Notes under the pieces: model-generated
Seen by the model: only the letters and a program-made list of their open reading frames with translations
What the model was told of the DNA's origin: nothing
Databases searched by the model: none
Part shown: in pieces, positions 32,793 to 47,594 of the stretch
How the letters are laid out: every line of letters starts with the position of its first letter
Position numbering within the stretch: the first letter of the stretch is position 1
Made by a program: the position numbers and the translations under genes
Assembly: GCA_963789265.1 (NCBI GenBank)
Contig: CAWBKB010000001.1
Coordinates: 2,400,001 to 2,464,000, forward strand
Reading direction: 5' to 3'
DNA from: an uncultured delta proteobacterium
GTDB taxonomy: Bacteria; Desulfobacterota; Desulfomonilia; Desulfomonilales; Desulfomonilaceae
DNA: 64,000 nt

Positions 32793-35700
32793 TTACAATT
32801 TCGCTTCCATCATTCGTTCGTGCAACCGCCGAGACTGCAAGGCGAATGCTTCCAATCTCGCTTCAATAATCTGAGGAAATGCATTCCCATCGGTTTCAAT
32901 AGCCAGAAACGGGAGTTTTTGATTCTTGTTCAACAAAGACTTCCGGCCACGGTCATGGCCGTTGGTTTGTGAAAGGAGGGCCAATTTCTCACCGGAAGTG
33001 AATTTTTCCGAGAGAATTGATTCAGCTACTCTGCTGGGCATACAACCGAACGGCCCGATAGAGATGATCCCGCATGCAGGATGAAGGATTTCGTGAAGGG
33101 CCGCGCCCACCGTCAGAATCGCCTCGCCAGTGAGCATCGGTGAAACGAATTTCTCCCCTGCGTGGATAAGATCCTCAACGTAAAGGGTCTCGTGAAAGAA
33201 CAGGCCCGACGGAGCAAACAGATGTCGAATCTTTCGGTCAAAATGCCGTTTCACAAAATACCGAATCCAGAAAGGAATGTCCGGCTGGCCTTCTATGCGA
33301 TTCTTTATGAGCCAATCGACATATTTTATCCATTCGCTGGTCTGAGAAGTTCGCACAATGAATCCACGGTCTGCCATCTTTTCAACCAGCTTCTGCAAAG
33401 AGATGGGATCATTTCGCACGTATATCTCGCCGATGAGCGAGATCTTTGGGATCTCCTCGTACGGCATCTTCAGAGGGATACCGGCCAACGTTTGAGCCGA
33501 GGATCGAATCTGAACGCGGATCTCTTTCCACGAACGATGGACGACTTGCACAAGAGAATCCCATTCACGATAAAATATCTCCAGAGCCGATTCCCGATCC
33601 GCGGCCGCGGCCATTAGCGTGGACCAGATCTCATACATCACGTCACCGATGATAATGGCCCGCCATGCGGGTAAAGTGAAACGATCTCCCAATCCCATAT
33701 ACCCGTTCGCCGAATTCAACGTGAGCACAGCCGCGTCGGGGATTTGGTATCTTTCGATGAGGCGACGAGAAAACACATTGTACTGGCCGAACCGGCACGG
33801 ACCACCCGCTCCGGGCATGAAATAGGCGGTCACTTCACCCGACGGCCTTTCACGCCAGAAATAGTTGAGCATAGACCCTACAGTGGTTTGGAGAGGTAAA
33901 CACTCTTTGCAGGTAGAGTTCCCGCGACCGATCTTGAGCACTTCATCGTCCGCAGGCGGCAGGCCATGAGCGTTAATCCCGACCTTCTTGAAGGTTTGGA
34001 CGAGCGCCTGATGAGCGAAGCGGCCCATTGCGGGCAAGACGACTCGGACATTGGGGTCGGTAAGGGCTAGCTTTCTCCCGTCAGCGGTAGCAACGACCGG
34101 TTTTCCATCGACGATTGCAGCGACCGCGGCCCGAAACTCTTTCCGGGTCGCGGGAAGTTGCTTCTTGCTTTCAAGCTCTACGTAGTACCTTACAATATCG
34201 AGAAAAGCCTCTATACGTGTTTCAAGTCCGGCGTCCGCGGTGTGACTGTCGAGTTCCAGAGTCAGCGAGGGCTTACGCCCCATTTCTTCTCGGAAATATC
34301 CCACCACGAAGGAGTCCGGTCCGCACGAAAAGTTGCTGATATAAGTCCCGAACAGCCTCGGGTGATTCTTGACGAACCGGGCAGCCTTCAGAATCATCCT
34401 GCCCATGGACCAGTACATAGTATCCTCGTCGTCGAAGGTTTGGTCTTCGTAGGGCAGCATGTCAAACGGTATTATCCGATAACCCCTTGACGCGAATTTA
34501 GCCGGTATGCCTTTGTTAGCCTCACCTGCGAAGGCATTGTAGGGTCGGCCGAAAAGTACGATTGCAAGGGCGTCGCGATCTTCTTCAAGCTCTTGCAGCA
34601 TTTTTGCGCCCGAAGCGCGCATCTCTTCTCTGCAAGCGGCCTGAGCCTCCAGCGCTTCCCTGAATGCCCGCAACCCATCGGCCCGCGAGCGACCCAACTC
34701 CAAAGCAACCTTGATAAATTCATCGGTTCTCGGTTCGAAACCTCGGCTAAGATCCAGATAAGGAGTGACCACCTTCTTGGACTGCAAGCGCTCAAAGGTA
34801 CTCTTCAGGTAAAAGGCTTCCCCTTGAACGAAAACGCAGGTACAGGTGTTGGCGTTCTCGCTGTCGGTGGGTACGCCTCTTATGTGCGGAAGAAAGAGTA
34901 TTTCAGGTTCCTTGTCCAGGAGGTTCGCCATGAACCCATGAGCTATTTCCACAGGGAAACAGAAAGCTGCACCCTGCTGATCGACCCCTGCCGCTTCTAC
35001 TGAGTCGGGCAATACCAACCGGTATCCCAGCGTCTTGAAAAAGGCATTAAAGAACGGGAAATAGGTATTTACGAGGAACGAACGGTTCATGCCGATTGTT
35101 GGCCGGTTATCCACCACGCCGGCGGCATCGAGATCGCGAAAAACGATTCTTTGGCGATGGTCCACCATGTCGAGGGCGCTCTTGTCGAATTCCAAGTGAC
35201 GGATAAGATTTACGTACCGGTTACAAGCACCGCCAAAGGGGTACGTTTTCCCCTCTATCTCAATCCGAGCAATTTCACACCTTCGGTCACATTTTTCTTT
35301 CCCGCCGCCGCACACAAAAGGGTTCTTGTAGACCACGTCACGAGCGGCCAGTCGGTTGAGGTCAAAAGAAGCCTCGTTCAGCAGTCCGACTGCAATTCGC
35401 CTTTCCACTTCGAGTGCCACCCCGAATGCGCCCATGAGTCCGGGTTCGGGTGGGACAACAATTTCTTTTCCGGTGAGCGCGGACATGGCCGCAGGAATTG
35501 CCTCGTTGTAGCAGACCCCGCCCTGCATAAAGACCTTTTTTCCAACCGGCCTATTGCCTTTGACTCGGTTCGAGTAATTCATGCAGATGGAATACACTAA
35601 GCCTGCTACGATATCGTTTACGGGGATCCCCTCCTGTGCTGCATTTTTTATGTCAGACCCTATGAAAGCGGCGCACTGATCGTTGAAGTTTGGAGGATTT

Positions 35701-37079
35701 TGGCCCGTATATGCCACCGAGCCGATGTCGGTAACTTTGAGCCCGAGACTCTCTTTAGCCGACTCCTCCAGGAATGAGCCCGTCCCAGCGCTGCACGCTT
35801 CATTCATTGCGTAGTCGCTGGGGACCCCGTTGGTAATGTACGTATATTTCGCATCCTGGCCCCCGATTTCGAAAATGGTATCCACCTGAGGGTCAAAGTG
35901 CACTGCCGCGGCGGCATGCGCTATGATCTCGTTGAGCACGCCGTCGGTCATTGCGTGAAGTCCGGAAATCTGCCGACCCGATCCGGTAACTCCCAATCCT
36001 ATGATGCTTATGGGGACATCAATCTGTTGGGCGAGGCTGCTGTAGACTTTCCGGGAAGCTCCAACCGGATCGCCGTCGGTTCGAAGGTAGTCGGCTGCCA
36101 GTATAGCCTTATCGCGGCAGCGCATGATTACCCCCTTGGTTGTAGTGGACCCCACATCCAGACCCAACACCGTGCGGTCGCCGGCTTCAGCTTTTCCCCG
36201 AGGCCGATCTTCGAAACGGACCATGTGCCGAAATTCCGACAAGGGCTTGAGGTATGAGAAGGCAGACCCTTTATTCTGATAGACATCATCGGGGCCGGTG
36301 TAAGGGACAGTAGGATTATCCAGAGCCCACAAAGCAGCCCCAAGTGCTTCAAAATAGGGAGACTCTTCGGGGATGTGAAGGTCTTCAATCTCCTTGGCGA
36401 GATAATGCATCATGGTCTGATTACGGGATGAACCGCCGACGAGAAGTACAGACTTCTTCGGCAGCTTTTTCAGCAACTCGACCACTTTGGCGGCCATCAT
36501 CTTGGCGAGGCCGGCCACCACCTGCCCCTTCGGGATGCCCTTGTTCAGAGCGTGAGTGCAGTCACTCTTGCAGAAGACGGAACACCGGCCCGAGACCTTG
36601 TGTGGGTGGTCGGATATTCCGAGCTTGGCCACGTCCTCAAGGGTAATGTTCATCCTCCGGATTTGTTGGAGAAAGAACTCACCTGTGCCGGAAGCGCATT
36701 TGTTACCGGTTTGTATTCCCTGGATTTGCCCGTCTTCATCCAGGTGGTACACGAGAAATGTCTCTCCTCCCGCGCTGACGACCACTCGATAAGAATCATC
36801 CTTGCCGAGTATATGTGCCACAGCTCTCTCGACTGCCTCGGGTTCGGATATGGTAGTCAACCTGATAAAATTAATGAATTTTCGTCCAGTGACTGCTATC
36901 GGGATGTCACGAGCTTGAGGGATCTCTTCAAGTGCATCGAGCAGGGTTTTCCTGGGGTTCCCCTCATGGGTGATCGTCGAGGCACCAATTACCTCGATCA
37001 CATCGTCATCCTTGCGCAGGCGCACCATGCCGAGCGTGGAGGCTCCCAAACAAATACCCAGAGCTTCCATGAGCAACAC
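32793..37079 (-). CDS. 2-hydroxyacyl-CoA dehydratase activase-like fusion (two BcrA/D-type ASKHA ATPase domains plus DUF2229)
   Basis: KCASGTG, CSVFCKSD, GLDVGSTTTK, EIGGQDAK, MNEACSAGTG, GRPYN, SCGPD, GPFGCMP. Confidence 0.88.
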   Translation of the reverse strand: MLLMEALGICLGASTLGMVRLRKDDDVIEVIGASTITHEGNPRKTLLDALEEIPQARDIPIAVTGRKFINFIRLTTISEPEAVERAVAHILGKDDSYRVVVSAGGETFLVYHLDEDGQIQGIQTGNKCASGTGEFFLQQIRRMNITLEDVAKLGISDHPHKVSGRCSVFCKSDCTHALNKGIPKGQVVAGLAKMMAAKVVELLKKLPKKSVLLVGGSSRNQTMMHYLAKEIEDLHIPEESPYFEALGAALWALDNPTVPYTGPDDVYQNKGSAFSYLKPLSEFRHMVRFEDRPRGKAEAGDRTVLGLDVGSTTTKGVIMRCRDKAILAADYLRTDGDPVGASRKVYSSLAQQIDVPISIIGLGVTGSGRQISGLHAMTDGVLNEIIAHAAAAVHFDPQVDTIFEIGGQDAKYTYITNGVPSDYAMNEACSAGTGSFLEESAKESLGLKVTDIGSVAYTGQNPPNFNDQCAAFIGSDIKNAAQEGIPVNDIVAGLVYSICMNYSNRVKGNRPVGKKVFMQGGVCYNEAIPAAMSALTGKEIVVPPEPGLMGAFGVALEVERRIAVGLLNEASFDLNRLAARDVVYKNPFVCGGGKEKCDRRCEIARIEIEGKTYPFGGACNRYVNLIRHLEFDKSALDMVDHRQRIVFRDLDAAGVVDNRPTIGMNRSFLVNTYFPFFNAFFKTLGYRLVLPDSVEAAGVDQQGAAFCFPVEIAHGFMANLLDKEPEILFLPHIRGVPTDSENANTCTCVFVQGEAFYLKSTFERLQSKKVVTPYLDLSRGFEPRTDEFIKVALELGRSRADGLRAFREALEAQAACREEMRASGAKMLQELEEDRDALAIVLFGRPYNAFAGEANKGIPAKFASRGYRIIPFDMLPYEDQTFDDEDTMYWSMGRMILKAARFVKNHPRLFGTYISNFSCGPDSFVVGYFREEMGRKPSLTLELDSHTADAGLETRIEAFLDIVRYYVELESKKQLPATRKEFRAAVAAIVDGKPVVATADGRKLALTDPNVRVVLPAMGRFAHQALVQTFKKVGINAHGLPPADDEVLKIGRGNSTCKECLPLQTTVGSMLNYFWRERPSGEVTAYFMPGAGGPCRFGQYNVFSRRLIERYQIPDAAVLTLNSANGYMGLGDRFTLPAWRAIIIGDVMYEIWSTLMAAAADRESALEIFYREWDSLVQVVHRSWKEIRVQIRSSAQTLAGIPLKMPYEEIPKISLIGEIYVRNDPISLQKLVEKMADRGFIVRTSQTSEWIKYVDWLIKNRIEGQPDIPFWIRYFVKRHFDRKIRHLFAPSGLFFHETLYVEDLIHAGEKFVSPMLTGEAILTVGAALHEILHPACGIISIGPFGCMPSRVAESILSEKFTSGEKLALLSQTNGHDRGRKSLLNKNQKLPFLAIETDGNAFPQIIEARLEAFALQSRRLHERMMEAKL

Positions 37080-37213: not shown

Positions 37214-37867
37214 TCAATGAAAGTACTCGTAAATCCCCAGCGTAATCAGAATCAACCCGGAAATTCGGCCGGCAAACTTTCCAAACCAATGCACGCCGGA
37301 ATATTGCCCGAACTCTATCCCAAACCAAATCGTGAGAATGCTAAGTGCCGCTGTGAATGCTACCATCAAGGCCACATCGAGTCTCAACAGGCCCGCGCCG
37401 ATCCCATTGCTCAAATTATTCAACGATAATGCCAGGGCCAGCAAGAATCCTTCCCTCAGGTCGATGTGCCCGGAAAAATCCGCGTCAGCGAGAAATGGAT
37501 GATCGAGAATCGCAAGCATCTTCCTGAGACCCGACTGATTGGAAAGCGTCGTCTCTTGAAACTGCTGGGGCCCATCGCTTTGTAACTCATCCCGTCGAGA
37601 AATCTCCTGAGCAAAGACCCAAACTCCTGTGCCTCCAATCATGAGAGCGCCCAGGGCAGTCGCCACATTTTGATTTATGAGGCGGCCTATTTCGTTGCCG
37701 GCGGCCATCGAAAGATAAGTTCCGAAAGATGTGACGATAGCAATAAGCAAATTAGCGTTGAAAGGGATATTTATCTTTCTGACTCCGTAGGACGTACCAA
37801 CTCCCACGTTATCAAGGTTGCTCGACAGGGCAAGCAAAAAGATAGAAATGATATGTAGATTGGTCAT
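37214..37867 (-). CDS. YtaF/MntP-family membrane protein
   Basis: LALSSNLDNVGVGTSYG and LALSLNNLSNGIGAG repeats; about 6 TM helices. Confidence 0.8.
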   Translation of the reverse strand: MTNLHIISIFLLALSSNLDNVGVGTSYGVRKINIPFNANLLIAIVTSFGTYLSMAAGNEIGRLINQNVATALGALMIGGTGVWVFAQEISRRDELQSDGPQQFQETTLSNQSGLRKMLAILDHPFLADADFSGHIDLREGFLLALALSLNNLSNGIGAGLLRLDVALMVAFTAALSILTIWFGIEFGQYSGVHWFGKFAGRISGLILITLGIYEYFH

Positions 37868-37884
37868 TCTTCTCTCTAATGAGA

Positions 37885-38298
37885 TTAGCCGGGCGCGCTG
37901 TCTTCGGTCTCGTCCTTCTTTGTGTCGGCCCTTTTTCTCTCTTTATGCTCTACTAATCTCGGTTTCGGATGTGCGTCAGCGCCCGCCCCTTGCGCAGGAC
38001 GTGCCTTTTCCGTCGCCTCCGATTCCTTTTCCTTGACCGCGCTCACTTTCCGAGCCGACGGTCGCTTCTCTTTGCTTACGGCCGCGGACCGCCCTTCCCT
38101 TCGGCCTTCGCAAACCTCCGCGCAAGTTTGCCGTCCCGTTTCGTACAGCAGGAACCCGCTCTTTAGAATCGCCTTTAGCAACGGCCTCACAGTGTACCAT
38201 GCCAACGGCACAACCACAGGCGCTGCGAGTAAACCGGCGCCGACTGCGACACCGGTCCAGATATCGCCACTCTTCGGTCTGAAATCCCAGATTGCCAT
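37885..38298 (-). CDS. DUF5132-like small membrane protein with basic tail
   Basis: WTGVAVGAGLLAAPVVVP...RPLLKAILKSG..LYE; paralogue of 44856-45122. Confidence 0.75.
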   Translation of the reverse strand: MAIWDFRPKSGDIWTGVAVGAGLLAAPVVVPLAWYTVRPLLKAILKSGFLLYETGRQTCAEVCEGRREGRSAAVSKEKRPSARKVSAVKEKESEATEKARPAQGAGADAHPKPRLVEHKERKRADTKKDETEDSAPG

Positions 38299-38383
38299 GT
38301 GCTGCCCCTCTCTACCGGACTGTTTTGGGCGCCACGACACCGCAATCAGGTATGCTATCAGACATAAGGCTGTCGTCAGCCGC

Positions 38384-38411
38384 TGACAATGTCAAGTTAG
38401 GATTCTGTCAA
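38384..38411 (-). promoter_or_regulatory. 11-bp-periodic direct-repeat box (OmpR/PhoB-type)
   Basis: Minus strand TTGACA-N5-CTAACT-N5-TTGTCA upstream of the 38298 gene. Confidence 0.4.
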
Positions 38412-38441
38412 TCGCGTTTGTCATGACACCAAATGAAAGAC

Positions 38442-38624
38442 TCAGTCTTCAGTCAACTCGTCAACAATAAGAGAACCGATTTTACTCTCCGCGGCTTCTA
38501 TTTCTTCTATCTCCTTGCAAGTCGTCGGGCTTAGGAGGCCGTAGGTCTCGACGATCTTTTCCAGATATTCGGCGATTACTCGTCCCAGGTGCATCCCCAC
38601 CGACAATCCGATCCAAAACTCCAT
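38442..38624 (-). CDS. Small GxxxG-containing hypothetical protein
   Basis: 60 aa; WIGLSVGMHLG; acidic C-terminus; GGGGA RBS. Confidence 0.55.
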   Translation of the reverse strand: MEFWIGLSVGMHLGRVIAEYLEKIVETYGLLSPTTCKEIEEIEAAESKIGSLIVDELTED

Positions 38625-38750
38625 GATGTTTCCCCATAAGGTCTGAGATGTGAGAGGCCCGCGCCGTAGCGATTTACCAGCCCCACGCGGCGCGCTGAGC
38701 CAGTCCTACCGCGTATATGCCGGGTATGCTGTACCTGCCGGCCAGGTCTA

Positions 38751-38841
38751 ATACCGATTCGCATTCAGAATCCCCCCGTCCCCCCTTTACTAAAGGAGGG
38801 TTAGAGGGGATTTTCTCACAATCTTGAAAGCGAATCGGTAT
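38751..38841. mobile_element. MITE-like element
   Basis: TIR ATACCGATTCGC(A/T)TTCA; encloses a cccccctttactaaaggaggg hairpin. Confidence 0.65.
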
Positions 38842-39008
38842 AAAACCGGACGAGCAGCCTTCCCGACGAAGAGTTGCTTTCCGGTCTTACCCCATTGTCG
38901 CCACAGTCCCTCGCCCCATGTAGACATTTTGCGGACCCCAACACGGCGTCGCAAGCCTAAGATCATGCAAAGACATGAAATCCTCAAAGAAGACTTCCAC
39001 ATTAAGAA

Positions 39009-39036
39009 TTAATTTGTTGCTAATACTAGCCTAACA
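39009..39036 (+). promoter_or_regulatory. 11-bp-periodic direct-repeat box
   Basis: TTAATT-N5-CTAATA-N5-CTAACA upstream of the 39130 gene. Confidence 0.45.
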
Positions 39037-39129
39037 TTTTGTCGGCATTAGTTTAAACAGATTCATACGACGAAATTCCTCGTCGTCCAAATAGTCGTAC
39101 TGCTGGTCAGAATCCAAAGGGAGAAAGGC

Positions 39130-39501
39130 ATGAGCTATTATCTCCACGACGTGCCGGGGCGTATGAGAATCCAGATTCCGGCGTTGAAGAGGAATTCCGA
39201 ACGGGCGCAAGATGTTCAGGAGCTGTTGGACAGCCTCTCGGGCGTCAAATCGACCTCCGTGAACCCTGTTACAGGGAGTGTGATAGTTCTTTACGATCCG
39301 CAAGTAGTGCATTCTTCGACCATTCTGACACTTCTTTCCAGGGAAAGGCACATTGACATCGCAAGAATAATCTCAAGCCGTCAACATCTCGAGGCTGGCC
39401 TTTCCAAGGCGGGCCGCGCAGCGTCCAAAGCCCTCATAGGTATCGCATTGGATCTAGCGTTAGAGGGTTCTCCCTTATCGATTCTCACAGCCTTCATTTA
39501 G
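39130..39501 (+). CDS. HMA2 (CoBaHMA-type) domain protein
   Basis: YLHDVPGRMRIQIP...NPVTGSVIVLYD; no CxxC; C-terminal hydrophobic helix. Confidence 0.8.
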   Translation: MSYYLHDVPGRMRIQIPALKRNSERAQDVQELLDSLSGVKSTSVNPVTGSVIVLYDPQVVHSSTILTLLSRERHIDIARIISSRQHLEAGLSKAGRAASKALIGIALDLALEGSPLSILTAFI

Positions 39502-39751
39502 AGTTTCCCGCTAAAATAGGCCGCACCTAAATTCGCTCCTTGTCCCCAATTCTCGAGCGGGCGCAGCATCCTGCGCCCCCACCTTCGTAACGTGACTGGC
39601 CTCTTGGTGGCGACGGGCATCTTGCCCGTCATTTCTAATGGACAGGCTGGAAGCCTGTCCCACCAATCTAAATTCGGTGCCAACTCTCTCGAAAACCACT
39701 ATAAACGAATTTCGATGCGGTCCGCGGTCGTTGATGAAACGCGCCGAGCAA

Positions 39752-40942
39752 CTACGACCTTAGTAGATCTGCTTTGTCGGTGGCCTCCCACGGCAAATCC
39801 ATATCTGTCCGTCCGAAATGCCCATACGCGGCAAGTTTGCGATAGAAGCCATCACTGGACATCGATGGTAGCTTTGTCAAATTGAATTGTCTGACAATCC
39901 CGCCTAGCCTGAAATCGAAATGCTTCTCCACAAGGGCACTGATTTTGTCATCGGAAAGCTTGCCCGTTCCCATAGTCTCAACCTGGATGCTGACCGGCCC
40001 TGAAAGTCCTATCGAATAGCTAAGCTGGACCTCGCACTGTTCGGCAAGCCCTGCGGCGACAACATTCTTGGCCGCGTAACGAGCTGCATACGCACCGACC
40101 CTGTCAATTCTTAACGCATCTTTTCCGCTCAGAGCCGATCCGCTGTTTCTGGAATAACCTCCGTAAGTGTCGATGGCATTCTTTCGACCTGTCAGTCCTG
40201 AGTGCACCGACGGCCCGCCCATTTTCAAAGGGCCTCCCGGATTGATCAGGATACTGGTGTTCCCGTCAGGGACTATAGGCTCACCCTCAAATGCCTCTTT
40301 TATGACCGTTTCCATCACATCGTCTCGAAGTCGGTCCAGTTTGGGATGGGTCCGATCTATCTGGCTTGAATTGATCGTGATACTGTGGATCCTGTGCGGA
40401 ATGCGATTGTCGTATTCGACTCCGACCTGGGTGGTGCCGTCAGGCGCCAAGTATGGCAATACGCCTTGCAGCCTCACCTCGGAGAGCCTCTTCGAAAGCT
40501 TGTGGGCAAGCCATATCGGAAGCGGCATAAGCGTCGGTGATTGATTGCAAGCAAAACCGAATAACGTTACCTGGTCGTATGCCACGACTCTATCTATGTC
40601 CTCTTCGGACACATCGTCTTCGGCAACCAGGCAGTGCTGCTCCGGCGTCATTTCTTTGAGGCTGGTCAATATGCTGCAAGTCTTGAAGTTGAATTCATGG
40701 TCAATGTACCCGATCCGCCGGATAACCTTTCTGGCCACATTAGGAAAATCGACCTTCACGCCGGATGCAAATCTTGCAGCAATGAACACCACTGACAGTG
40801 ACACTGCGCACTCGGCGATAACCCGGGCGCATAAGTCATGCTCGAGAAAACGGTCTATGATGGCATCGCTTATCTGATCGCACAGCTTGTCCGGGTGTCC
40901 TTCGGTGACCGATTCGGACGTGTGGATGAAGTGCTTTTTCAT
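39752..40942 (-). CDS. metK: Divergent methionine adenosyltransferase paralogue
   Basis: SESVTEGHPDK, GLTGRK..DTYG, SGKD..IDR, AAYGHFGR; several substrate-binding residues substituted; 4-bp overlap with the ATPase. Confidence 0.85.
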   Translation of the reverse strand: MKKHFIHTSESVTEGHPDKLCDQISDAIIDRFLEHDLCARVIAECAVSLSVVFIAARFASGVKVDFPNVARKVIRRIGYIDHEFNFKTCSILTSLKEMTPEQHCLVAEDDVSEEDIDRVVAYDQVTLFGFACNQSPTLMPLPIWLAHKLSKRLSEVRLQGVLPYLAPDGTTQVGVEYDNRIPHRIHSITINSSQIDRTHPKLDRLRDDVMETVIKEAFEGEPIVPDGNTSILINPGGPLKMGGPSVHSGLTGRKNAIDTYGGYSRNSGSALSGKDALRIDRVGAYAARYAAKNVVAAGLAEQCEVQLSYSIGLSGPVSIQVETMGTGKLSDDKISALVEKHFDFRLGGIVRQFNLTKLPSMSSDGFYRKLAAYGHFGRTDMDLPWEATDKADLLRS

Positions 40943-43900
40943 TTGTTGTCCGCCGATGTTTTTTTGGTGACTTCGTTTATGAGCAGAGGAACTACTGACG
41001 CAGCCCCGATTACCAACCCGTCAAAAAGTGTTATCGGGGTTGTGCCCAGCAGTGTTCTCAGCCCGGGAACAAGCTGAGAAGCCAGTTGCAGCCCGAGTGA
41101 GCCAACGACCGCCACATTAAGATATTTATTCGGCGCGGATTTCCGGCGATCGAAGATGGTGCGCGTCTCTGAACGACAACTCACGGCGTGCAGGATCTGA
41201 GACGTGGTAAGGCTTTGAAATGCCAACGTACCCGCGGCCGGGCCCATGCCGTATTTCATAACACCGTATCCGTACGCGGCAAGCGAAGTCGCGGTCATCG
41301 TCGCAGCCTCGAAGCCAATTCTCTTGAAGTCGTTTGTCTTCACAATAGGCGCGGTGGAATCCCGCGGCGGGTGACTCATTACGTCAGGTTCCGCAGGTTC
41401 CAAAGCCAAGGCAAGTCCCGGGAATATGTCCGATACAAGGTTGATCCAGAGCAGTTGCATGGCATTAAGAGGGTATCCCAGTCCTAGAGCGCCTGCGACA
41501 AACATTACTTGGATTTCGCTGAAGTTGGTGGCAAGAAGATATCGGAGCGTCTTTCTGATATTATTGTAAATTGTTCGCCCATCACTTATCGCGATGATCA
41601 AGGTCTCCAGGTCGTCTTCTTCAAGCACCACATCAGCCACGTCTCGAGCCACATCAGTTCCAGCCCGCCCCATTGCTATACCAATGTCCGCGGCCTTGAG
41701 TGCAGGCCCGTCGTTAATGCCGTCGCCGGTCATGGCCACCACCTTGCCGGAACTCTGAAGGGCCTGAACAATCTGGAGCTTATTCGACGGGCTGACCCTG
41801 GAAAAGACGTGGACCTCCTTGCTCAGAGCTTTTAATACCGCAGGCTCGGTGGTTGTCAGGTGTGTCGAATCCAGGATTTCCAGCGGCCTGCCGTTGCTGA
41901 GCCCCAATTCCTTTCCCACAGCATACGCGGTCGGGCTCTGGTCTCCGGTGACCATCACAGTTTCCAGCCCCGCTTCATGAAACACCACTATGGATTCTTT
42001 GACTCGATTCCGGATAGGGTCGGCCATGCCGACCAGGCCCAACCAAGTGAAGCCATTCTCTGTCTCCGAGTGCTCATCGGAATTCCGGACGGCGAACGCG
42101 ACCCCCAGCACCCGCAATGCATTGCCGGCCATATTGTCATTTTCGGCTTCGACAATGTCTCTGTCCTTATCGGTAAGCGCGATGGCAGCCCCATTCCGGA
42201 TCTGATATTTGCACTTGGCGAGGACTTCTACGGGATTCCCCTTCAAAGCCACCAATACTTCCTTATCCGCGTATACGTGTTCAGTAACCATGAATTGGCG
42301 ATCATCGGACCGATACTGAATATTCAACACCGGATGTTGATCCCTTAGTGCCCGAACGTCAATGCCGCCGTTAATCGCCATGTAGATCAGAGCGTTTTCG
42401 GTTGGGGAGCCATTCAAAACGTACTGCCGATCTCTGAACTCGATTTGAGTCTCATTGCAGAGCACGCATATATGAATGAGTTTCAAGACCTCGTCGGACT
42501 GGGAGGGGTCAAATAGCTTTTCGCGGCTATAGAAGCTATTTTCACTTATCCGTATCTTCTCCATCCCGGAATAAATCGTCAGCACGGTCATTCGGTTATG
42601 GGTAATTGTGCCGGTTTTATCGAAACATATCGTCTGGACCGAGCCTAGCGTACAGATTGCATCGAGATTCCTTATGAGGACTTTGTGCTTCCTCATATTA
42701 TTGATCCCAAGCGCAAGCGTGGTCGTCGCAACAGCCGGCAGTCCTTCGGGAACTGCCGCGACGGCAAGAGAGATGGCTGTCTTGAGCATCTGAAGAAAGC
42801 CGTTCCCCCTGATGAGCCCCATAAAGAAAACTAACCCGCAGACGGCCCCGGAGATCAATACCAGTTGGTTGCCGATCTTCGTCAACTGTCGCTCTACGGG
42901 GGTTTCCGGGGCTTCGGCTTCAGCAAGAAGACTTTGGATCTTGCCTACTTCCGAGAACATGCCGATTGCTACGACAACCGCCAACCCCTGGCCCCCGGTG
43001 ATGAGCGTGCCCGAATAAACCATGTTGGTCCGGTCCGCGAGGGGAACCTTGGGGCCCTTAAGCGGAGATGAATTCTTGGACACCGGCATGCTTTCACCGG
43101 TGAGCACCGACTCGTCCACGGTAAGACGGGTTGCCTCGATAATTCTCGCGTCCCCTGTCACATACGTCCCTGGTTTCAGCAAAAGGATATCCCCCACGAG
43201 GACCTGTTCCGCGGGGATTTCCTGCAAACTGCCTTCCCGTATTACCTGTGCGGTTGGGCGGATCAACCTCTTCAACGAGCTTATTGTCTTTTCCGCTTCA
43301 TTTTCCGTAACAAAGCCGATTGCCGCGTTAATGCCCACCACAACCACAATTATGACGGCATCCGCAAGCCCCCCAGTAACCACGGAAAGACCGGCAGCCG
43401 CAGCCAGGAGCGCGACCGGGAAAGAGTTGAATTGATCGAAGAAAATGCCCAGCTTGGAGCGAGACAGAGGCTCGGGAAGAACATTAAGGCCGTATTCGCG
43501 GCGATTTTCCTGGGAGGCTTGGGCTGACAAGCCTCGTTTTCTGGAGGATTTCAGCGATGAAAGGACGAATTTCACATTGAGCAGGTGCCAGGGTTTAGAC
43601 TTATGAGCTTTGGAGAGGCCATACTCCGGCCGATCTTTCCCGGTGCGAACAACCCTGAGATCGGTTACAACGGCGAGTGCACCGACTTCAGTAGAGCCGG
43701 GGCCGCCCTTGGCCTCGTTATCCCTGGTCTCTCGCAGATAGGCTATCACAACACTCTCCACGCTCAGGGCTATCTTGCGAGGATTACAGTCAGGATTGAA
43801 AATTACCAGCACGTTTCCGGTCAAAATGTTGGCCGAAACGCGCCTGACGTCTTCGTCCTGCGGGAGTAACATTTCCAAGCGGTATTTGAGTGACACGCAT

Positions 43901-43965
43901 CGATAGAGGCCTTCGACTTTGTATCGCACTCTGCCCGGAATATGGTTATGAACTGTTTCTAACAA
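40939..43965 (-). CDS. P2A-type (Ca2+/Mn2+-like) P-type ATPase with N-terminal HMA2 domain
   Basis: HNHIPGRVR N-terminus; LTGES, VPEGLP, DKTGT, TGDGINDGPAL, TNFSE, QLLWINLVSD. Confidence 0.92.
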   Translation of the reverse strand: MLETVHNHIPGRVRYKVEGLYRCVSLKYRLEMLLPQDEDVRRVSANILTGNVLVIFNPDCNPRKIALSVESVVIAYLRETRDNEAKGGPGSTEVGALAVVTDLRVVRTGKDRPEYGLSKAHKSKPWHLLNVKFVLSSLKSSRKRGLSAQASQENRREYGLNVLPEPLSRSKLGIFFDQFNSFPVALLAAAAGLSVVTGGLADAVIIVVVVGINAAIGFVTENEAEKTISSLKRLIRPTAQVIREGSLQEIPAEQVLVGDILLLKPGTYVTGDARIIEATRLTVDESVLTGESMPVSKNSSPLKGPKVPLADRTNMVYSGTLITGGQGLAVVVAIGMFSEVGKIQSLLAEAEAPETPVERQLTKIGNQLVLISGAVCGLVFFMGLIRGNGFLQMLKTAISLAVAAVPEGLPAVATTTLALGINNMRKHKVLIRNLDAICTLGSVQTICFDKTGTITHNRMTVLTIYSGMEKIRISENSFYSREKLFDPSQSDEVLKLIHICVLCNETQIEFRDRQYVLNGSPTENALIYMAINGGIDVRALRDQHPVLNIQYRSDDRQFMVTEHVYADKEVLVALKGNPVEVLAKCKYQIRNGAAIALTDKDRDIVEAENDNMAGNALRVLGVAFAVRNSDEHSETENGFTWLGLVGMADPIRNRVKESIVVFHEAGLETVMVTGDQSPTAYAVGKELGLSNGRPLEILDSTHLTTTEPAVLKALSKEVHVFSRVSPSNKLQIVQALQSSGKVVAMTGDGINDGPALKAADIGIAMGRAGTDVARDVADVVLEEDDLETLIIAISDGRTIYNNIRKTLRYLLATNFSEIQVMFVAGALGLGYPLNAMQLLWINLVSDIFPGLALALEPAEPDVMSHPPRDSTAPIVKTNDFKRIGFEAATMTATSLAAYGYGVMKYGMGPAAGTLAFQSLTTSQILHAVSCRSETRTIFDRRKSAPNKYLNVAVVGSLGLQLASQLVPGLRTLLGTTPITLFDGLVIGAASVVPLLINEVTKKTSADNK

Positions 43966-44061
43966 CTGATTAGCCTTGTCTCGGCGGGCTCGCCCTACCT
44001 CATGAAAACGCGAGACGCCTGCTTTAGTCCTCTACTAGTTCTGGTTCCCAGGTTGTGCCAT

Positions 44062-44233
44062 ATAGGGGCTAACTTAACGATTTCCCCCCCTTCGTAAAGG
44101 GGGGTTAGGGGGGATGTTTGTCTAACTCCTTGAAAATCCCCCCTAATCCCTCTTTAGAAAGGAGGGACTTTGATGGCCCTTAGCCCGTTGGACCTCTTCA
44201 GAGATATCGAGATGCTCTTAAGTTAGCACCTAT
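44062..44233. mobile_element. MITE-like element between REP-type arms
   Basis: TIR ATAGG(G/T)GCTAACTTAA; flanked by gttcccaggttgtgcc and ggcagagcccgggaac. Confidence 0.65.
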
Positions 44234-44305
44234 CAGGCAGAGCCCGGGAACGAGAAACGCTTAAGTTAAGCTACTTAGCAATATATTGACGCCAACGCGA
44301 TGCTT

Positions 44306-44827
44306 TCAATCTCCATTTGCATCGTCCGCTTCCAATGCAAAGTCTTCCCCTTCGTCCCACTCCTCAATCTGTGCTCGCGTGAATACGCCCAACGCGTAAT
44401 AAAATGCCGTGTACCATGCAGGCATGACAATATTTCCTCGTGCAATCTGCCAGACTCCGGAAATTACCAGGCTGAGAAAAATGAGACTGGGAATATCGAC
44501 TTCGCCGCCGGTCGCATTCTTAAGATATCTATTATACACTTGAAACGTATCGGCTACATTGGTGAAAAGAGGCTTCTGTGGCCGTCCGGAGCGTCCCAAA
44601 ACAAACAGCTCGTTTTCTCTCGCAAAGTCAGCGATGGTCTTTCTTTCGCCTTCGTAGGAAATCAGGGCGCTTCCTATGTTAGGATTCACCCTGATTTCCT
44701 TTACCCCGGGGCAGCCGGAAAGCCGCTCCATCAAATTAGAAAAATATGAGACATCCCTTCTCTTAGAAGGAATCTTGATTCTTAGCCTGCGGGCCATCCG
44801 ATGAGACACATGAGCCTTCGGAATCAT
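44306..44827 (-). CDS. HMA2 (CoBaHMA-type) domain membrane protein
   Basis: VSHRMARRLRIKIP...NPNIGSALISYE; two C-terminal hydrophobic segments (TGGEVDIP, PAWYTAFYYA); acidic tail. Confidence 0.8.
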   Translation of the reverse strand: MIPKAHVSHRMARRLRIKIPSKRRDVSYFSNLMERLSGCPGVKEIRVNPNIGSALISYEGERKTIADFARENELFVLGRSGRPQKPLFTNVADTFQVYNRYLKNATGGEVDIPSLIFLSLVISGVWQIARGNIVMPAWYTAFYYALGVFTRAQIEEWDEGEDFALEADDANGD

Positions 44828-44855
44828 TTCTCCTCTCTTTGGTTCCCGTGTTCGT

Positions 44856-45122
44856 CTAAGCTCCTTTTGTCTTCGCCGGAGTCAGCTCAGCCTGCACTTC
44901 AGACTTCGCTTCGGCAGCCAGATCTTCTACTACCTCTGCGACCTCGGCAATCATTTCTCTGCATTTTTCGTAGAGCATTAAGCTGCCCTTTATGCCCGCC
45001 TTTGCAACCGGCCTTGCCGCGGTGGCTATCATCGGAATTACCACGGGGGCTACGAGTAAGCCCACCCCGATCGCGACGCCAGTCCACACACTGCCTTTAG
45101 GTGTGAAATTCCAACTGGCCAT
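44856..45122 (-). CDS. DUF5132-like small membrane protein
   Basis: WTGVAIGVGLLVAPVVIP...RPVAKAGIKG..LYE...EDLAAEAKSE; GGAGG RBS. Confidence 0.8.
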   Translation of the reverse strand: MASWNFTPKGSVWTGVAIGVGLLVAPVVIPMIATAARPVAKAGIKGSLMLYEKCREMIAEVAEVVEDLAAEAKSEVQAELTPAKTKGA

Positions 45123-45205
45123 TTGACGCCTCCTTCTTTCCGATCGTTCGGTAGGTCATCAACCTACTATAATAGCGTAAATCATTTCCCAGATTATGTC
45201 TATTT

Positions 45206-45233
45206 TGTTAGCTTATCATTAGCATTGTGTTAA
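45206..45233 (-). promoter_or_regulatory. 11-bp-periodic direct-repeat box
   Basis: Minus strand TTAACA-N5-CTAATG-N5-CTAACA upstream of the 45122 gene. Confidence 0.55.
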
Positions 45234-45365
45234 AAATGACGGCTTCGAGAAGTATTTTTAGAAATTCATTTTCCTGTACGGCCCCGGACCTGCTGAAAGT
45301 CGCTCAACCCCTTTGCTGAAGAGGAACGGCGAATCCGAAAGGGATGCAAAATTCTTCCCCCGAAT

Positions 45366-45404
45366 TTAACACCTTTTTAACATTTGTCTAATCGTAGCTC
45401 AACA
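45366..45404 (+). promoter_or_regulatory. Pho-box-like 11-bp-periodic repeats
   Basis: TTAACA (45366), TTAACA (45377), CTAATC (45388), TCAACA (45399), facing phoB-phoU. Confidence 0.55.
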
Positions 45405-45971
45405 ATCTTTGTTGAGAATGACTTCGCGGATTAATTCTCCCCGGCGGACAAAGGACGATTTACCGCACGGCCCCCCACAACTGTTAATCGACGGCTGAGC
45501 GGGATCGGTGTCTCTTCCGGCCACCGGGGTCTCCTCGACTCGGAGCATTTTTTCGAGAGCGGCGGCATAAGGTCCCCGCACTGCATTGCCCCTTGGCTCG
45601 CTGCCTTCGTATCCCCGGGGAAACGCATACTCGGCGCGCGAGGGAGATATTTGTTTTGTTCGCAATGACCAGGAGGAAATATAACTTGAATCTCCATACT
45701 TCTAGCCGAGATTTCGGCATTGTGCCTCTAATAGATCGCGATATTGCACTAGGGGAGTCCACGGAGATTCGACAAGTTCGTCGCTGTACAGACTTTGACG
45801 TATCGATAGAGATTCGTCTGTTGGTTAGCTTGTGATGACGGTAGGGAGGTCGGCGGGCTCGCCATCCCGTCAGCCAGTGGTGGTGAGCCCCCTCCCAATC
45901 CACTGCCGGCCTCCCAACATTTCTGGCTTTCCAAACACGTGTAATGCAAGGCAGAGAACAAGCGGGTGTGA

Positions 45972-46661
45972 ATGGCCAAAGAAAAAGTTCTAGTCGTCGA
46001 TGACGACGAAGATATCTTAGAGCTGGTAACGTACAATCTGACAAAGGAAGGGTATCACGTTTCTTCAGTTCTTTCCGGGGAACAGGCTTTAAAGAAGGCA
46101 AAGGAGGAACACCCTGACGCAATACTGCTCGACCTCATGCTGCCCGGGGTAGATGGCCTGGATGTCTGCCGGGAATTGAAGAACGATCCTGCTACCAGGT
46201 ACATACCCGTTCTGATGGTAACCGCAAAAGGAGAGGATGCCGACATAGTCAGCGGCCTGGAATTGGGTGCGGACGATTACATCACCAAACCTTTCAGCCC
46301 CCGAGTCCTTTTGGCCCGCCTGAAAACCGTTCTACGGCGGAACAAGCCTCAAGAGTCTGAAGAGCTCGCGGTCGTGAACCTGCACGGCCTCACCATCGAT
46401 CCTAACCGTCACCAGGTCCTCCTTGAGAGGATGCCCATCGTTCTCACCACCACGGAGTTCAGGATCCTTCATTTTCTGGCGCGGCGCCCCGGTCGAGTCT
46501 TCAGCCGAGACCAGATAATAAACGCGGTGAAGGGGGAGAATTATGCTGTAACGGAGCGCTCTGTCGACGTACAAATTGTTAGTCTGAGAAAGAAGCTCGG
46601 CAGGTTTGGAGACGCGATAGAGACGGTCAGAGGGGTGGGCTATAGGGTGAAAGAGGAGTAG
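45972..46661 (+). CDS. phoB: OmpR/PhoB-family response regulator
   Basis: VVDDD, LLDLMLP, GADDYITKPFSPR, ERSVDVQI, IETVRGVGY; next to phoU. Confidence 0.8.
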   Translation: MAKEKVLVVDDDEDILELVTYNLTKEGYHVSSVLSGEQALKKAKEEHPDAILLDLMLPGVDGLDVCRELKNDPATRYIPVLMVTAKGEDADIVSGLELGADDYITKPFSPRVLLARLKTVLRRNKPQESEELAVVNLHGLTIDPNRHQVLLERMPIVLTTTEFRILHFLARRPGRVFSRDQIINAVKGENYAVTERSVDVQIVSLRKKLGRFGDAIETVRGVGYRVKEE

Positions 46662-46880
46662 TGTTTGTTCAGCGGATTATCGGGATTCACGGTCCTGCAA
46701 GACGCGCGATTGCCGTGAACGAATACCATGCGCGCCGTACCGGCACAGACCGGATAGTAGGATGGCCCACCGCATCGCCGGGCGGAAAGAACAGAATTCT
46801 CCGCGATCTCAACGTTCTCTGCGGTGAACTGTTGCTGAGAAGAAACGTCACTTGGCAAAACCGCGAGGAAGGAACGATGA

Positions 46881-47594
46881 ATGAGGATAAGACTGCAGAA
46901 GGACATTGACAGGTTGAAAGAGAGGATTGTTTCACTAGGGACTCTGGTGGAAGAGCACTTTCGCGTGGCGATCAAAGCCATCCAAAATCTGGATGCCCAG
47001 TTGGCCAAGACTGTCATTGATGGTGATATAGAGGTTGATCGGCTGGAGATTGATGTTGAGGAGGATTGCCTGAAGATTCTGGCCCTTCACCAGCCCGTTG
47101 CAGACCAGTTGCGGTATATAGTGGCGATACTGAAGATGAACAATGATTTGGAACGAATAGGGGATTTAGCTGTCAATATTGCCGAGCAAGCGGAAGCTAT
47201 CGCTCGCGACGAGCGACAGGTCTTAGCATTTGACTATCTGACCATGGGACAGAAGGCCGAGGAAATGCTGAAGAAGAGCCTCGATTCCCTCATAAATACC
47301 GATCTTCGCTTGGCTTACGAGGTATTGAGCCGAGACGACGACGTTGATGCCATGAAAAATGCGATCGAGGCCCAGTTCGCGCAGGAGATGTGCAAGTCCA
47401 AGGGAGATCCTGCATCCCTGATCAACTTGTTCCTGGTCTCACGTCATCTCGAACGCATAGCCGACCATGCCACCAACATTGCGGAAGACGTGATATATCT
47501 GATCACAGGCGAGATCCACAGGCACCGAGGAGCGGTGGTCATACGAGGCAGCGATAGCTGGTTTAGTAAATCGGACGAGCACGAACTGGGCTGA
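46881..47594 (+). CDS. phoU: Phosphate signalling protein PhoU
   Basis: ALHQPVADQLR, DLERIGDLAVNIA, HLERIADHATNIAEDVIY. Confidence 0.93.
   Translation: MRIRLQKDIDRLKERIVSLGTLVEEHFRVAIKAIQNLDAQLAKTVIDGDIEVDRLEIDVEEDCLKILALHQPVADQLRYIVAILKMNNDLERIGDLAVNIAEQAEAIARDERQVLAFDYLTMGQKAEEMLKKSLDSLINTDLRLAYEVLSRDDDVDAMKNAIEAQFAQEMCKSKGDPASLINLFLVSRHLERIADHATNIAEDVIYLITGEIHRHRGAVVIRGSDSWFSKSDEHELG

Follow-up and report, generated by a model that had tools for sequence, protein, structure and literature searches.

A conserved gene cluster in Desulfomonilaceae points to a probable phosphate-regulated P2A cation-pump platform with CoBaHMA, DUF5132 and MAT-fold partners

Here we describe a gene cluster between positions 37214 and 47594 of a 64,000-nucleotide stretch of DNA from an uncultured delta proteobacterium of the family Desulfomonilaceae (assembly GCA_963789265.1, contig CAWBKB010000001.1; the whole stretch is called the window, and coordinates without further label refer to it). 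The cluster brings together a P2A-type P-type ATPase, two small membrane proteins related to DUF5132, two separate proteins with CoBaHMA (HMA_2) domains and a MetK paralogue with the methionine adenosyltransferase (MAT) fold, which we call MetK2. With moderate confidence, and judging from sequence, we propose that these genes encode a Pho-regulated cation-pump platform, in which CoBaHMA domains would serve as docking modules, DUF5132 proteins as scaffolds resembling mycobacterial PacL, and MetK2 as a re-purposed enzyme. A preliminary description of the same DNA had seen a ferrosome-style cluster rebuilt around a Ca2+/Mn2+-type ATPase, and in it a candidate compartment for storing metal phosphate. 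The genes it listed are all present where it had placed them, by open reading frames (ORFs), Pfam and NCBIfam; its view of what they build is revised below.

Results

The arrangement of the cluster is conserved well beyond the window. Across a sample of 401 genomes of the phylum, in which orthologue loci were inspected with 8.5-kb flanks, P2A pumps of any kind are matched in 225 genomes, and full-length orthologues of the window's pump, aligning over residues 1-1008 at 49-63% identity and more than 930 bits, are found in 29, the window's own included. In generic P2A pumps the alignment begins no earlier than about residue 120, with 36-41% identity and below 720 bits, and by these alignments the full-length orthologues are a class distinct from them. 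One more genome (G080) has a pump match at 40%, and in five genomes of family f33 the C-terminal half of the pump is matched at 56-60% in frames of 1067-1070 aa, one of which was checked (L088). The DUF5132 profile, PF17195, finds 37 of the 401 genomes, including all 35 that bear the pump; those with the profile and no pump are G113 (a weak match) and G286.

All 28 full-length orthologue loci of the phylum have MetK2 and DUF5132 beside the pump, so the co-conservation of these genes holds, and 25 of the 28 also encode the hairpin protein, in which a CoBaHMA domain is joined to a helical hairpin. Three HMA_2 pumps of 37% identity (L085-L087) have no partner genes within the flanks. The order of the genes persists through about 15 GTDB families. 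At family level it is seen in 15 loci, down to 66% pump identity, and runs from DUF5132a through the hairpin gene (where present), the ATPase, MetK2, the free-standing HMA_2 gene on the opposite strand and a microprotein gene (where present) to DUF5132b. Among these Desulfomonilaceae loci MetK2 adjoins the pump in 14 of 15 and the hairpin protein is found in 10 of 15; homologues of the free CoBaHMA protein occur in most orthologue loci. Because the arrangement is syntenic in the 15 family loci, the 28 phylum loci and loci from metagenomes, we regard it as more than chance.

The pump itself (1008 aa; 40939-43965, minus strand) is of the P2 type by Pfam and NCBIfam, with Cation_ATPase_N and Cation_ATPase_C domains and a PEGLP motif, which bears out the earlier assignment to class P2A and not P1B. 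It carries a Cys-less CoBaHMA domain at its N-terminus (about residues 1-75). Its best NCBIfam model is the PMR1-type TIGR01522 (623.5 bits, cut-off 798.3); TIGR01116 gives 537.6 bits (cut-off 703.4), and heavy-metal models score far lower. Among solved structures SPCA1 comes closest (480 bits), ahead of Listeria LMCA1 (465 bits) and SERCA (389 bits). Aligned to SPCA1, the pump keeps the Glu of PEGLP in transmembrane helix 4 (TM4) and the Asn and Asp of TM6, a likeness shared with SPCA1/PMR1 and LMCA1, its top structural matches. It differs from them in the extra N-terminal CoBaHMA domain, about 120 residues, and in TM5, where Asn and Glu stand in place of the Ser and Ala of SPCA1; by SERCA numbering, these two residues would suggest a second ion site. 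The predicted ion is most likely Ca2+ and possibly Mn2+. Genes of the Na_Ca_ex family lie near the cluster in L076 and L162.

MetK2 (39752-40942, minus strand) overlaps the stop codon of the ATPase by 4 nt in the window, and among 40 pairs of pump and MetK2 frames 26 overlap, the shared stretch being exactly 4 nt in 17. The preliminary description had called this gene a translationally coupled MetK paralogue, and the coupling stands on these overlaps; MetK2 would presumably be made in fixed ratio with the pump. What has to be given up is the notion of an ordinary MetK, since its methionine-binding residues are lost. MetK2 has a whole-length MAT fold and passes TIGR01034 (376 bits, cut-off 309), so automatic annotation will name it metK; the genome's housekeeping metK, encoded at another place, reaches 587 bits against 376 for MetK2. 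In an alignment of 41 paralogues that also took in E. coli MetK (L090) and the genome's own housekeeping enzyme, H14, D16, K17, E42, R244, K245, K265 and D271 are invariant in 41/41. According to the consulted parts of two accounts of the E. coli enzyme (PMC3853416, PMC1282579), D238 and E55 bind the amino group of methionine, Q98 and K269 its carboxyl, F230 stacks on adenine and H14 is the catalytic acid. In MetK2 all four methionine residues are replaced: E55 by Arg (39/41), D238 by His (41/41), K269 by Arg (40/41), and Q98, retained in only 3 of 41, otherwise by a hydrophobic residue. In addition, C239 is Ser in 41/41 and F230 is Leu in 26/41.

On this alignment MetK2 retains the triphosphate site, and new, themselves conserved residues have taken the place of the methionine pocket; that conservation argues for a change of function and not for decay. 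MetK2 is therefore probably not an ordinary S-adenosylmethionine (SAM) synthetase; adenosyl transfer to another acceptor and cleavage of tri- or polyphosphate are the activities we considered. The same signature appears in about 20 of the best 150 matches from a search of 1.84 billion cluster representatives. These representatives are annotated as methionine adenosyltransferase, and some come from Gammaproteobacteria and Acetobacteraceae.

A second line of evidence concerns phosphate. Divergent from the operon lie a PhoB-type response regulator (45972-46661, plus strand; best model TIGR02154) and PhoU (46881-47594, plus strand; TIGR02135, 194.5 bits, above cut-off). The divergent phoB-phoU pair noted earlier is thus present in the window, but among the 15 family loci its direct adjacency is kept only in the closest relative, L011; in others Pho genes recur nearby. 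Within 8.5 kb, Pho-type genes are found in 10 of 29 phylum loci (PhoB, PhoU, pst, PHO4 with PhoU_div, alkaline phosphatase, GDPD, PhoH-PIN and PsiE), genes for phosphorus-free lipids in 11 of 29 (OlsF-like, BtaA-like DUF3419, PHP-GT4, PSD-like, Methyltransf_24 and GT21), and one or the other in 18 of 29. Metagenome loci offer a like context, with Porin_O_P, PhoX-like and phosphonate-binding proteins, OlsF-like genes and PhoH.

The intergenic region holds two arrays resembling Pho boxes, built of YTAACA units with an 11-bp period. One (45195-45233, minus strand) starts 111 nt upstream of the start codon of DUF5132a, the first gene of the operon, and is among the genome's 6 three-unit arrays described below; the other (45366-45404, plus strand) has four units, faces phoB and is the genome's top array, with 21 of 24 matches. 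A strict scan for three TTAACA units with at most 2 mismatches in total found none genome-wide, and arrays were instead scored by the number of matches to the YTAACA hexamer, with thresholds of at least 16/18 for three units and at least 19/24 for four, and with control spacings of 9, 10, 12, 13 and 14. At spacing 11 the window's own genome (6.06 Mb) contains 6 three-unit and 7 four-unit arrays, against no three-unit array at any control spacing and 0, 0, 0, 1 and 0 four-unit arrays at the five controls in turn. In 893 kb of related loci the corresponding numbers are 22 and 42, against 0-1 at control spacings.

The positions of these arrays are consistent with a regulon. In the own genome they precede DUF5132a, phoB, a third DUF5132 gene (contig C8) and two PHP-GT4 lipid operons, of which one is transcribed divergently from pstS; a further three have no assigned meaning. 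In related loci they precede DUF5132a in 9 loci, the free CoBaHMA gene in 4 and pstS in L087, and the array facing phoB is conserved in L011. Boxes with an 11-bp period, the direct repeats expected of a Pho regulon, are thereby common to the operon, phoB, the pstS region and the lipid operons. Arrays and gene context together support the Pho-type control that had been proposed for the cluster, under which the operon would most likely be induced when phosphate is scarce. PhoB control means induction at low phosphate, which fits poorly with a store of phosphate mineral, and the metal-phosphate compartment of the preliminary description is to that extent argued against. As a separate observation, the PHP-GT4 gene beside pstS is broken into overlapping frames, one of 212 and one of 637 aa (G000:C1:546809-549305, G000 being the own genome), and the copy at C1:675589-677973 is intact.

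The accessory proteins form a recognisable set. DUF5132a (44856-45122, minus strand; PF17195, 38.8 bits, cut-off 25) is a single-pass protein with a GxxxGxG motif inside its membrane helix, followed by a conserved acidic cytosolic helix rich in Glu and Ala, in which E60, E63, D67, E71 and E75 are nearly invariant (alignment A1). An AlphaFold2 (AF2) model renders residues 12-87 as one long helix (pLDDT 75.9). Its paralogue DUF5132b (37885-38298, minus strand) has a long tail rich in Lys and Glu; it falls below the Pfam cut-off (17.4 bits), yet matches a family hidden Markov model (HMM) built here with an E-value of 4.6e-29. The microprotein (38442-38624, minus strand) has 60 aa, an acidic tail and two GxxxG motifs, which brings to three the small proteins of the cluster that bear this motif. 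It has no family match in Pfam or NCBIfam, and tblastn matches to it occur in 8 of the 15 Desulfomonilaceae loci. Two further DUF5132 genes of the genome (G000:C8:96574-96879 and G000:C5:590019-590441) are solitary and near transposases; neither has a transporter beside it, and we set them aside. The repeat array of the C8 copy begins 47 nt upstream of the open frame.

Two proteins with CoBaHMA domains are encoded separately from the pump. The hairpin protein (173 aa; 44306-44827, minus strand) matches PF19991 with 58.3 bits over profile positions 9-151 of 154, that is, over domain and hairpin, and the free-standing protein (123 aa; 39130-39501, plus strand), which ends in a hydrophobic C-terminal segment and is convergent with MetK2, matches it with 54.2 bits. 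Both values lie above the cut-off of 30; the N-terminus of the ATPase falls below it with 21.7 bits, and many orthologues bear a precomputed PF19991 label. That the window holds three Cys-less HMA2 domains with an H-x(3-4)-R-x-R motif, as had been claimed, is confirmed by the translations: the motif is present in all three, CxxC in none, and H9, R14 and R16 are invariant or nearly so (alignment A2). The AF2 model of the hairpin protein (pLDDT 87.8) runs beta0-beta1-alpha-beta-beta-alpha and then into three helices; strands at residues 4-11 and 14-18 precede the first helix, giving an HMA-type fold with an extra N-terminal strand. Among solved structures its top folds are HMA and YAM domains, with probabilities of 0.99-1.00 but E-values of only 0.01-0.1. 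By profile match, basic residues and want of CxxC, and for the hairpin protein also by the extra N-terminal strand of its model, both separate proteins belong to the CoBaHMA family. CoBaHMA domains were reportedly proposed by Gaschignard and colleagues in 2024 to bind anionic lipids. A complex prediction for the hairpin protein (A2) with DUF5132a (A1) scored 0.01 against a mark of 0.32 and, run without controls, is evidence neither way.

The same genome also encodes a 736-aa P1B-type ATPase whose N-terminus matches HMA_2 (31.4 bits) and whose TM4 has CPC (G000:C6; L005:7936-10146, minus strand). As a possible fez (ferrosome) cluster this locus was set aside: it adjoins cox and UbiA-family genes and has neither DUF5132 nor a hairpin protein.

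Beyond the phylum, the accessory genes recur ahead of different pumps. When metagenome contigs were scanned with the DUF5132 alignment, 80 loci were recovered, including two duplicates. Of the 72 in which a following gene would fit, 61 encode the hairpin HMA_2 protein immediately after DUF5132. Next comes a P2A pump, mostly with an HMA_2 N-terminus, in 31 of 80 loci, and a P1B-type pump with HMA_2 in 10 of 80; one locus has both classes. MetK2 is present in 9 metagenome loci, beside close orthologues only, and in a soil-type group that lacks MetK2, two DUF5132 genes and the hairpin gene accompany a P2A pump of 973 aa. In one protein cluster (P0057, 1058 aa), DUF5132 is fused to the N-terminus of a full P2A pump. 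The P1B pumps beside DUF5132 have in TM4 either CPC or neither Cys nor Pro, and not SCA; genes for FUR or TonB/ExbBD lie near only two P1B-type loci (L141 and L169). Found ahead of either P2A or P1B pumps, the accessory module (single-pass GxxxG protein, two-helix CoBaHMA protein and pump with a Cys-less basic N-terminus) is supported, by these gene neighbourhoods, as portable between pump classes.

Two side observations may be added. A protein of 585 aa (P0020) fuses HMA_2, Cation_ATPase_N and a partial E1-E2 domain with PAP2, and three P-type ATPases with HMA_2 N-termini beside DUF5132 have no Cys or Pro at the metal-site position of TM4 (L137:1111-4236, L141:6789-9149 and L169:10866-13445).

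The remaining neighbours are less constant. The YtaF/MntP-family membrane protein (37214-37867, minus strand; TIGR02840, 154.6 bits) had been counted as a member; none of the 15 family-level loci has it, and of 48 related loci L059 alone has it beside the cluster. As it is not conserved we removed it from the membership. Directly downstream of the cluster, a 1428-aa fusion joins two BcrAD/BadFG activase modules with DUF2229 (32793-37079, minus strand), and it is adjacent in L011 too. Between the hairpin gene and the pump, many orthologue loci contain a recurrent ORF of about 230 aa that has no Pfam match and does not occur in the window (for example L059:11557-12234, L062:11581-12273 and L100:10837-11550). 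Another recurrent protein without a Pfam match, of about 820-840 aa, lies near the cluster in L067 (14541-17063), L068 (2989-5478), L070 (13514-15991) and L100 (3360-5810); the L068 copy has a strong repeat array 5' of the gene, and the own genome has a 59%-identical copy away from the cluster (C3:668904-671312). Finally, a dispersed repeat with G/C runs (44040-44200; 57 blastn-short matches genome-wide) lies in the 340 nt that separate the hairpin gene from the ATPase, and a shorter related element lies 5' of the microprotein gene (38780-38860; 16 matches in the genome); from their sequence, both elements are like miniature inverted-repeat transposable elements (MITEs) or repetitive extragenic palindromic (REP) elements.

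Discussion

The cluster shares its parts with three known systems, and each comparison has its strengths and its limits. As far as the consulted parts of one report go (10.1101/2020.01.10.902569), fez clusters comprise small GxxxG proteins, Arg-rich Cys-less HMA proteins, among them FezC with its two helices, and a pump whose N-terminus bears the same motif, and they are needed for ferrosomes. The window likewise has a pump with an N-terminal Cys-less Arg-rich HMA-type domain, which is also found on separate proteins, a protein that combines this domain with two membrane helices as FezC does, and small hydrophobic GxxxG proteins; its carriers are anaerobes as well. For the small proteins the likeness to FezA-type proteins is one of motif. 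In contrast, the window's pump is P2A (PEGLP) and FezB is P1B-6, a class whose TM4 motif is SCA in the sections consulted of PMC13460109; the context here is phosphate starvation, where that of fez is iron and Fur; and a MAT-fold enzyme is coupled to the window's pump. With no P1B-6 pump and no iron context, the cluster is not fez. What survives of the ferrosome-style toolkit is a set of accessory parts that travel as a portable module, with DUF5132 tracking the P2A pump in the phylum sample.

The second comparison is with mycobacteria. According to the same source in part (PMC13460109), PacL has a single helix bearing a Gly motif, together with Glu/Ala repeats; its gene precedes those of P1B pumps that have no CxxC in their N-terminal domains, and the protein binds those domains, stabilises the pumps and clusters them in the plasma membrane. 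DUF5132 is of the same build and lies just upstream of a P-type ATPase, a likeness of architecture and gene order only. The mycobacterial partners described there (CtpC, CtpG and CtpV) differ in being P1B metal exporters induced by Zn or Cd, and the PacL-Ctp systems (PacL1-3 / DUF1490) have neither a CoBaHMA hairpin protein nor a MAT-fold enzyme. The third is the ccyA neighbourhood of Microcystis aeruginosa PCC 7806, where the consulted parts of 10.1101/2024.07.07.602159 place two DUF5132 proteins, one hairpin CoBaHMA and one free CoBaHMA beside ccyA, which encodes calcyanin, and the Ca2+/H+ exchanger cax, the DUF5132/CoBaHMA set being co-expressed with ccyA, a marker of intracellular Ca-carbonate formation. 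Calcyanin is marked by a triple glycine-zipper domain. Two DUF5132 proteins, a hairpin CoBaHMA and a free CoBaHMA are also among the parts seen in the window, where they adjoin a predicted Ca2+ pump; the Microcystis transporter, however, is an exchanger and not an ATPase, and, as far as that source describes it, the neighbourhood has no MetK paralogue and no Pho link. By analogy of parts, we see the cluster as a sister system to ferrosome clusters, PacL-Ctp effluxosomes and the Microcystis ccyA neighbourhood.

A mechanism for the proposed platform can be sketched as follows. Once phosphate is exhausted, PhoB would bind the YTAACA arrays and switch on the operon alongside lipid remodelling. Starvation would consume polyphosphate and phospholipids, the main chelators of divalent cations, and the Ca2+ so freed would be expelled or sequestered, with the pump exporting it from the cytosol. 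The basic Cys-less CoBaHMA domains of the pump, the hairpin protein and the free protein would be docking or regulatory modules and not metal sites, while the DUF5132 proteins, on the PacL analogy, would bind these domains and keep the pump stable or gather it into clusters, as a membrane platform that may sit in the cytoplasmic membrane or on an internal vesicle. MetK2 would still handle triphosphate and no longer cage methionine, acting on some other acceptor or cleaving tri- or polyphosphate.

Several points weigh against this proposal. The related loci are kin and not independent of one another. The pump scores under every NCBIfam Ca-ATPase equivalog cut-off, for which reason its ion is a prediction. 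The YTAACA consensus was read by eye from the window's divergent region and one pstS upstream region, so the window's own two arrays are partly circular, and the array threshold is passed directly upstream of a cluster gene in only 12 of 48 related loci. The adjacent regulator lies under the NCBIfam PhoB cut-off (260.6 against 296), and that PhoB is the protein binding the arrays is a step we only infer. As for the likeness to PacL, no DUF5132 protein among 31 matched DUF1490 at E-values up to 5.

The same parts could alternatively shape an organelle. DUF5132 and CoBaHMA proteins would then form a membrane-bounded compartment into which the P2A pump loads Ca2+, a calcium sink induced by starvation that would contain carbonate or residual polyphosphate and not serve as a phosphate store. 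We hold this to be unlikely, its support coming only from analogy and from ParA-like genes in five loci: fez clusters, which in the text consulted are defined by the same three types of part, are needed for ferrosomes, the same Pfam families flank ccyA and cax in an organism described as forming intracellular Ca carbonate, small ParA/MinD-like ATPases lie near the cluster in L076, L081, L087, L098 and L100, and P1B pumps with HMA_2 stand beside it in L058, L063, L066 and L071. On the other hand, inclusions are not known from any carrier, DUF5132 in the 401 phylum genomes occurs almost only together with the P2A pump, that pump is not P1B-6 and its context is phosphate and not iron. Moreover, PacL-Ctp parts of the same kind cluster, in the source's account, in the plasma membrane without vesicles, and by that analogy a plasma-membrane platform explains the parts at least as well as a compartment does. 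A fuller version can be imagined, in which a ferrosome-like calcium compartment is built on starvation: DUF5132 would shape the membrane, CoBaHMA domains would dock on acidic helices or polyphosphate, the pump would load the freed Ca2+, and the MAT-fold enzyme would return phosphate by cleaving tri- or polyphosphate (or perform a new adenosyl transfer). In this complete form we judge it quite unlikely. If true, it would make ferrosomes, the Ca-carbonate inclusions of cyanobacteria and mycobacterial effluxosomes versions of one CoBaHMA-based pump-scaffold machine.

The lipid genes around the cluster invite a different explanation, which we consider very doubtful, namely that MetK2 feeds the making of betaine or methylated lipids with an adenosyl or SAM-like donor, and that pump and CoBaHMA proteins register the loss of anionic phospholipids or adapt to it. 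A BtaA-like DUF3419 gene directly follows MetK2 in L078 and lies nearby in L077, OlsF-like genes are found in L075, L078, L081 and L110, and PSD-like, Methyltransf_24 and PHP-GT4 operons adjoin the cluster in many loci and have the same repeat arrays; the binding of anionic lipids reportedly proposed for CoBaHMA also speaks for this reading. Yet lipid genes are neighbours in only the 11 of 29 loci given above, whereas MetK2 and the pump are inseparable, and P2A pumps have no known lipid substrate; with the residues that hold methionine lost, an ordinary supply of SAM by MetK2 is unlikely too. Least probable of all, and in our view highly improbable, is a plain plasma-membrane Ca2+/Mn2+ efflux pump among unrelated small genes and a spare metK, for although generic P2A pumps are common and the core of this one is conventional, the gene order across some 15 families, the near-perfect co-occurrence with DUF5132, the coupling of MetK2 and the existence of a DUF5132-pump fusion all disfavour it, and the conserved MetK2 substitutions argue for selection on a joint function.

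In titles and abstracts of literature on DUF5132, HMA_2/CoBaHMA and phosphate limitation we found no prior description of the cluster, although Gaschignard et al. 2024 may list fusions of CoBaHMA with P-type ATPases; the parts consulted of Bosak et al. 2016 (PMC5193443) and of PMC11181052 do not mention the pump, the metK paralogue or DUF5132 and so lend it no support from experiment. If the proposed platform is correct, a single portable module would tie together iron ferrosomes, cyanobacterial carbonate formation and mycobacterial efflux platforms, with the class of pump being swappable. CoBaHMA (HMA_2) and DUF5132, so far functional orphans, would gain a concrete and testable role. A widespread MAT-fold subfamily that is annotated as metK and, by its sequence, has lost the methionine pocket is a candidate for a new enzyme activity. 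For the anaerobes that carry the cluster, the handling of divalent cations would be added to a phosphate-starvation response whose earlier themes have been lipid remodelling and phosphate uptake.

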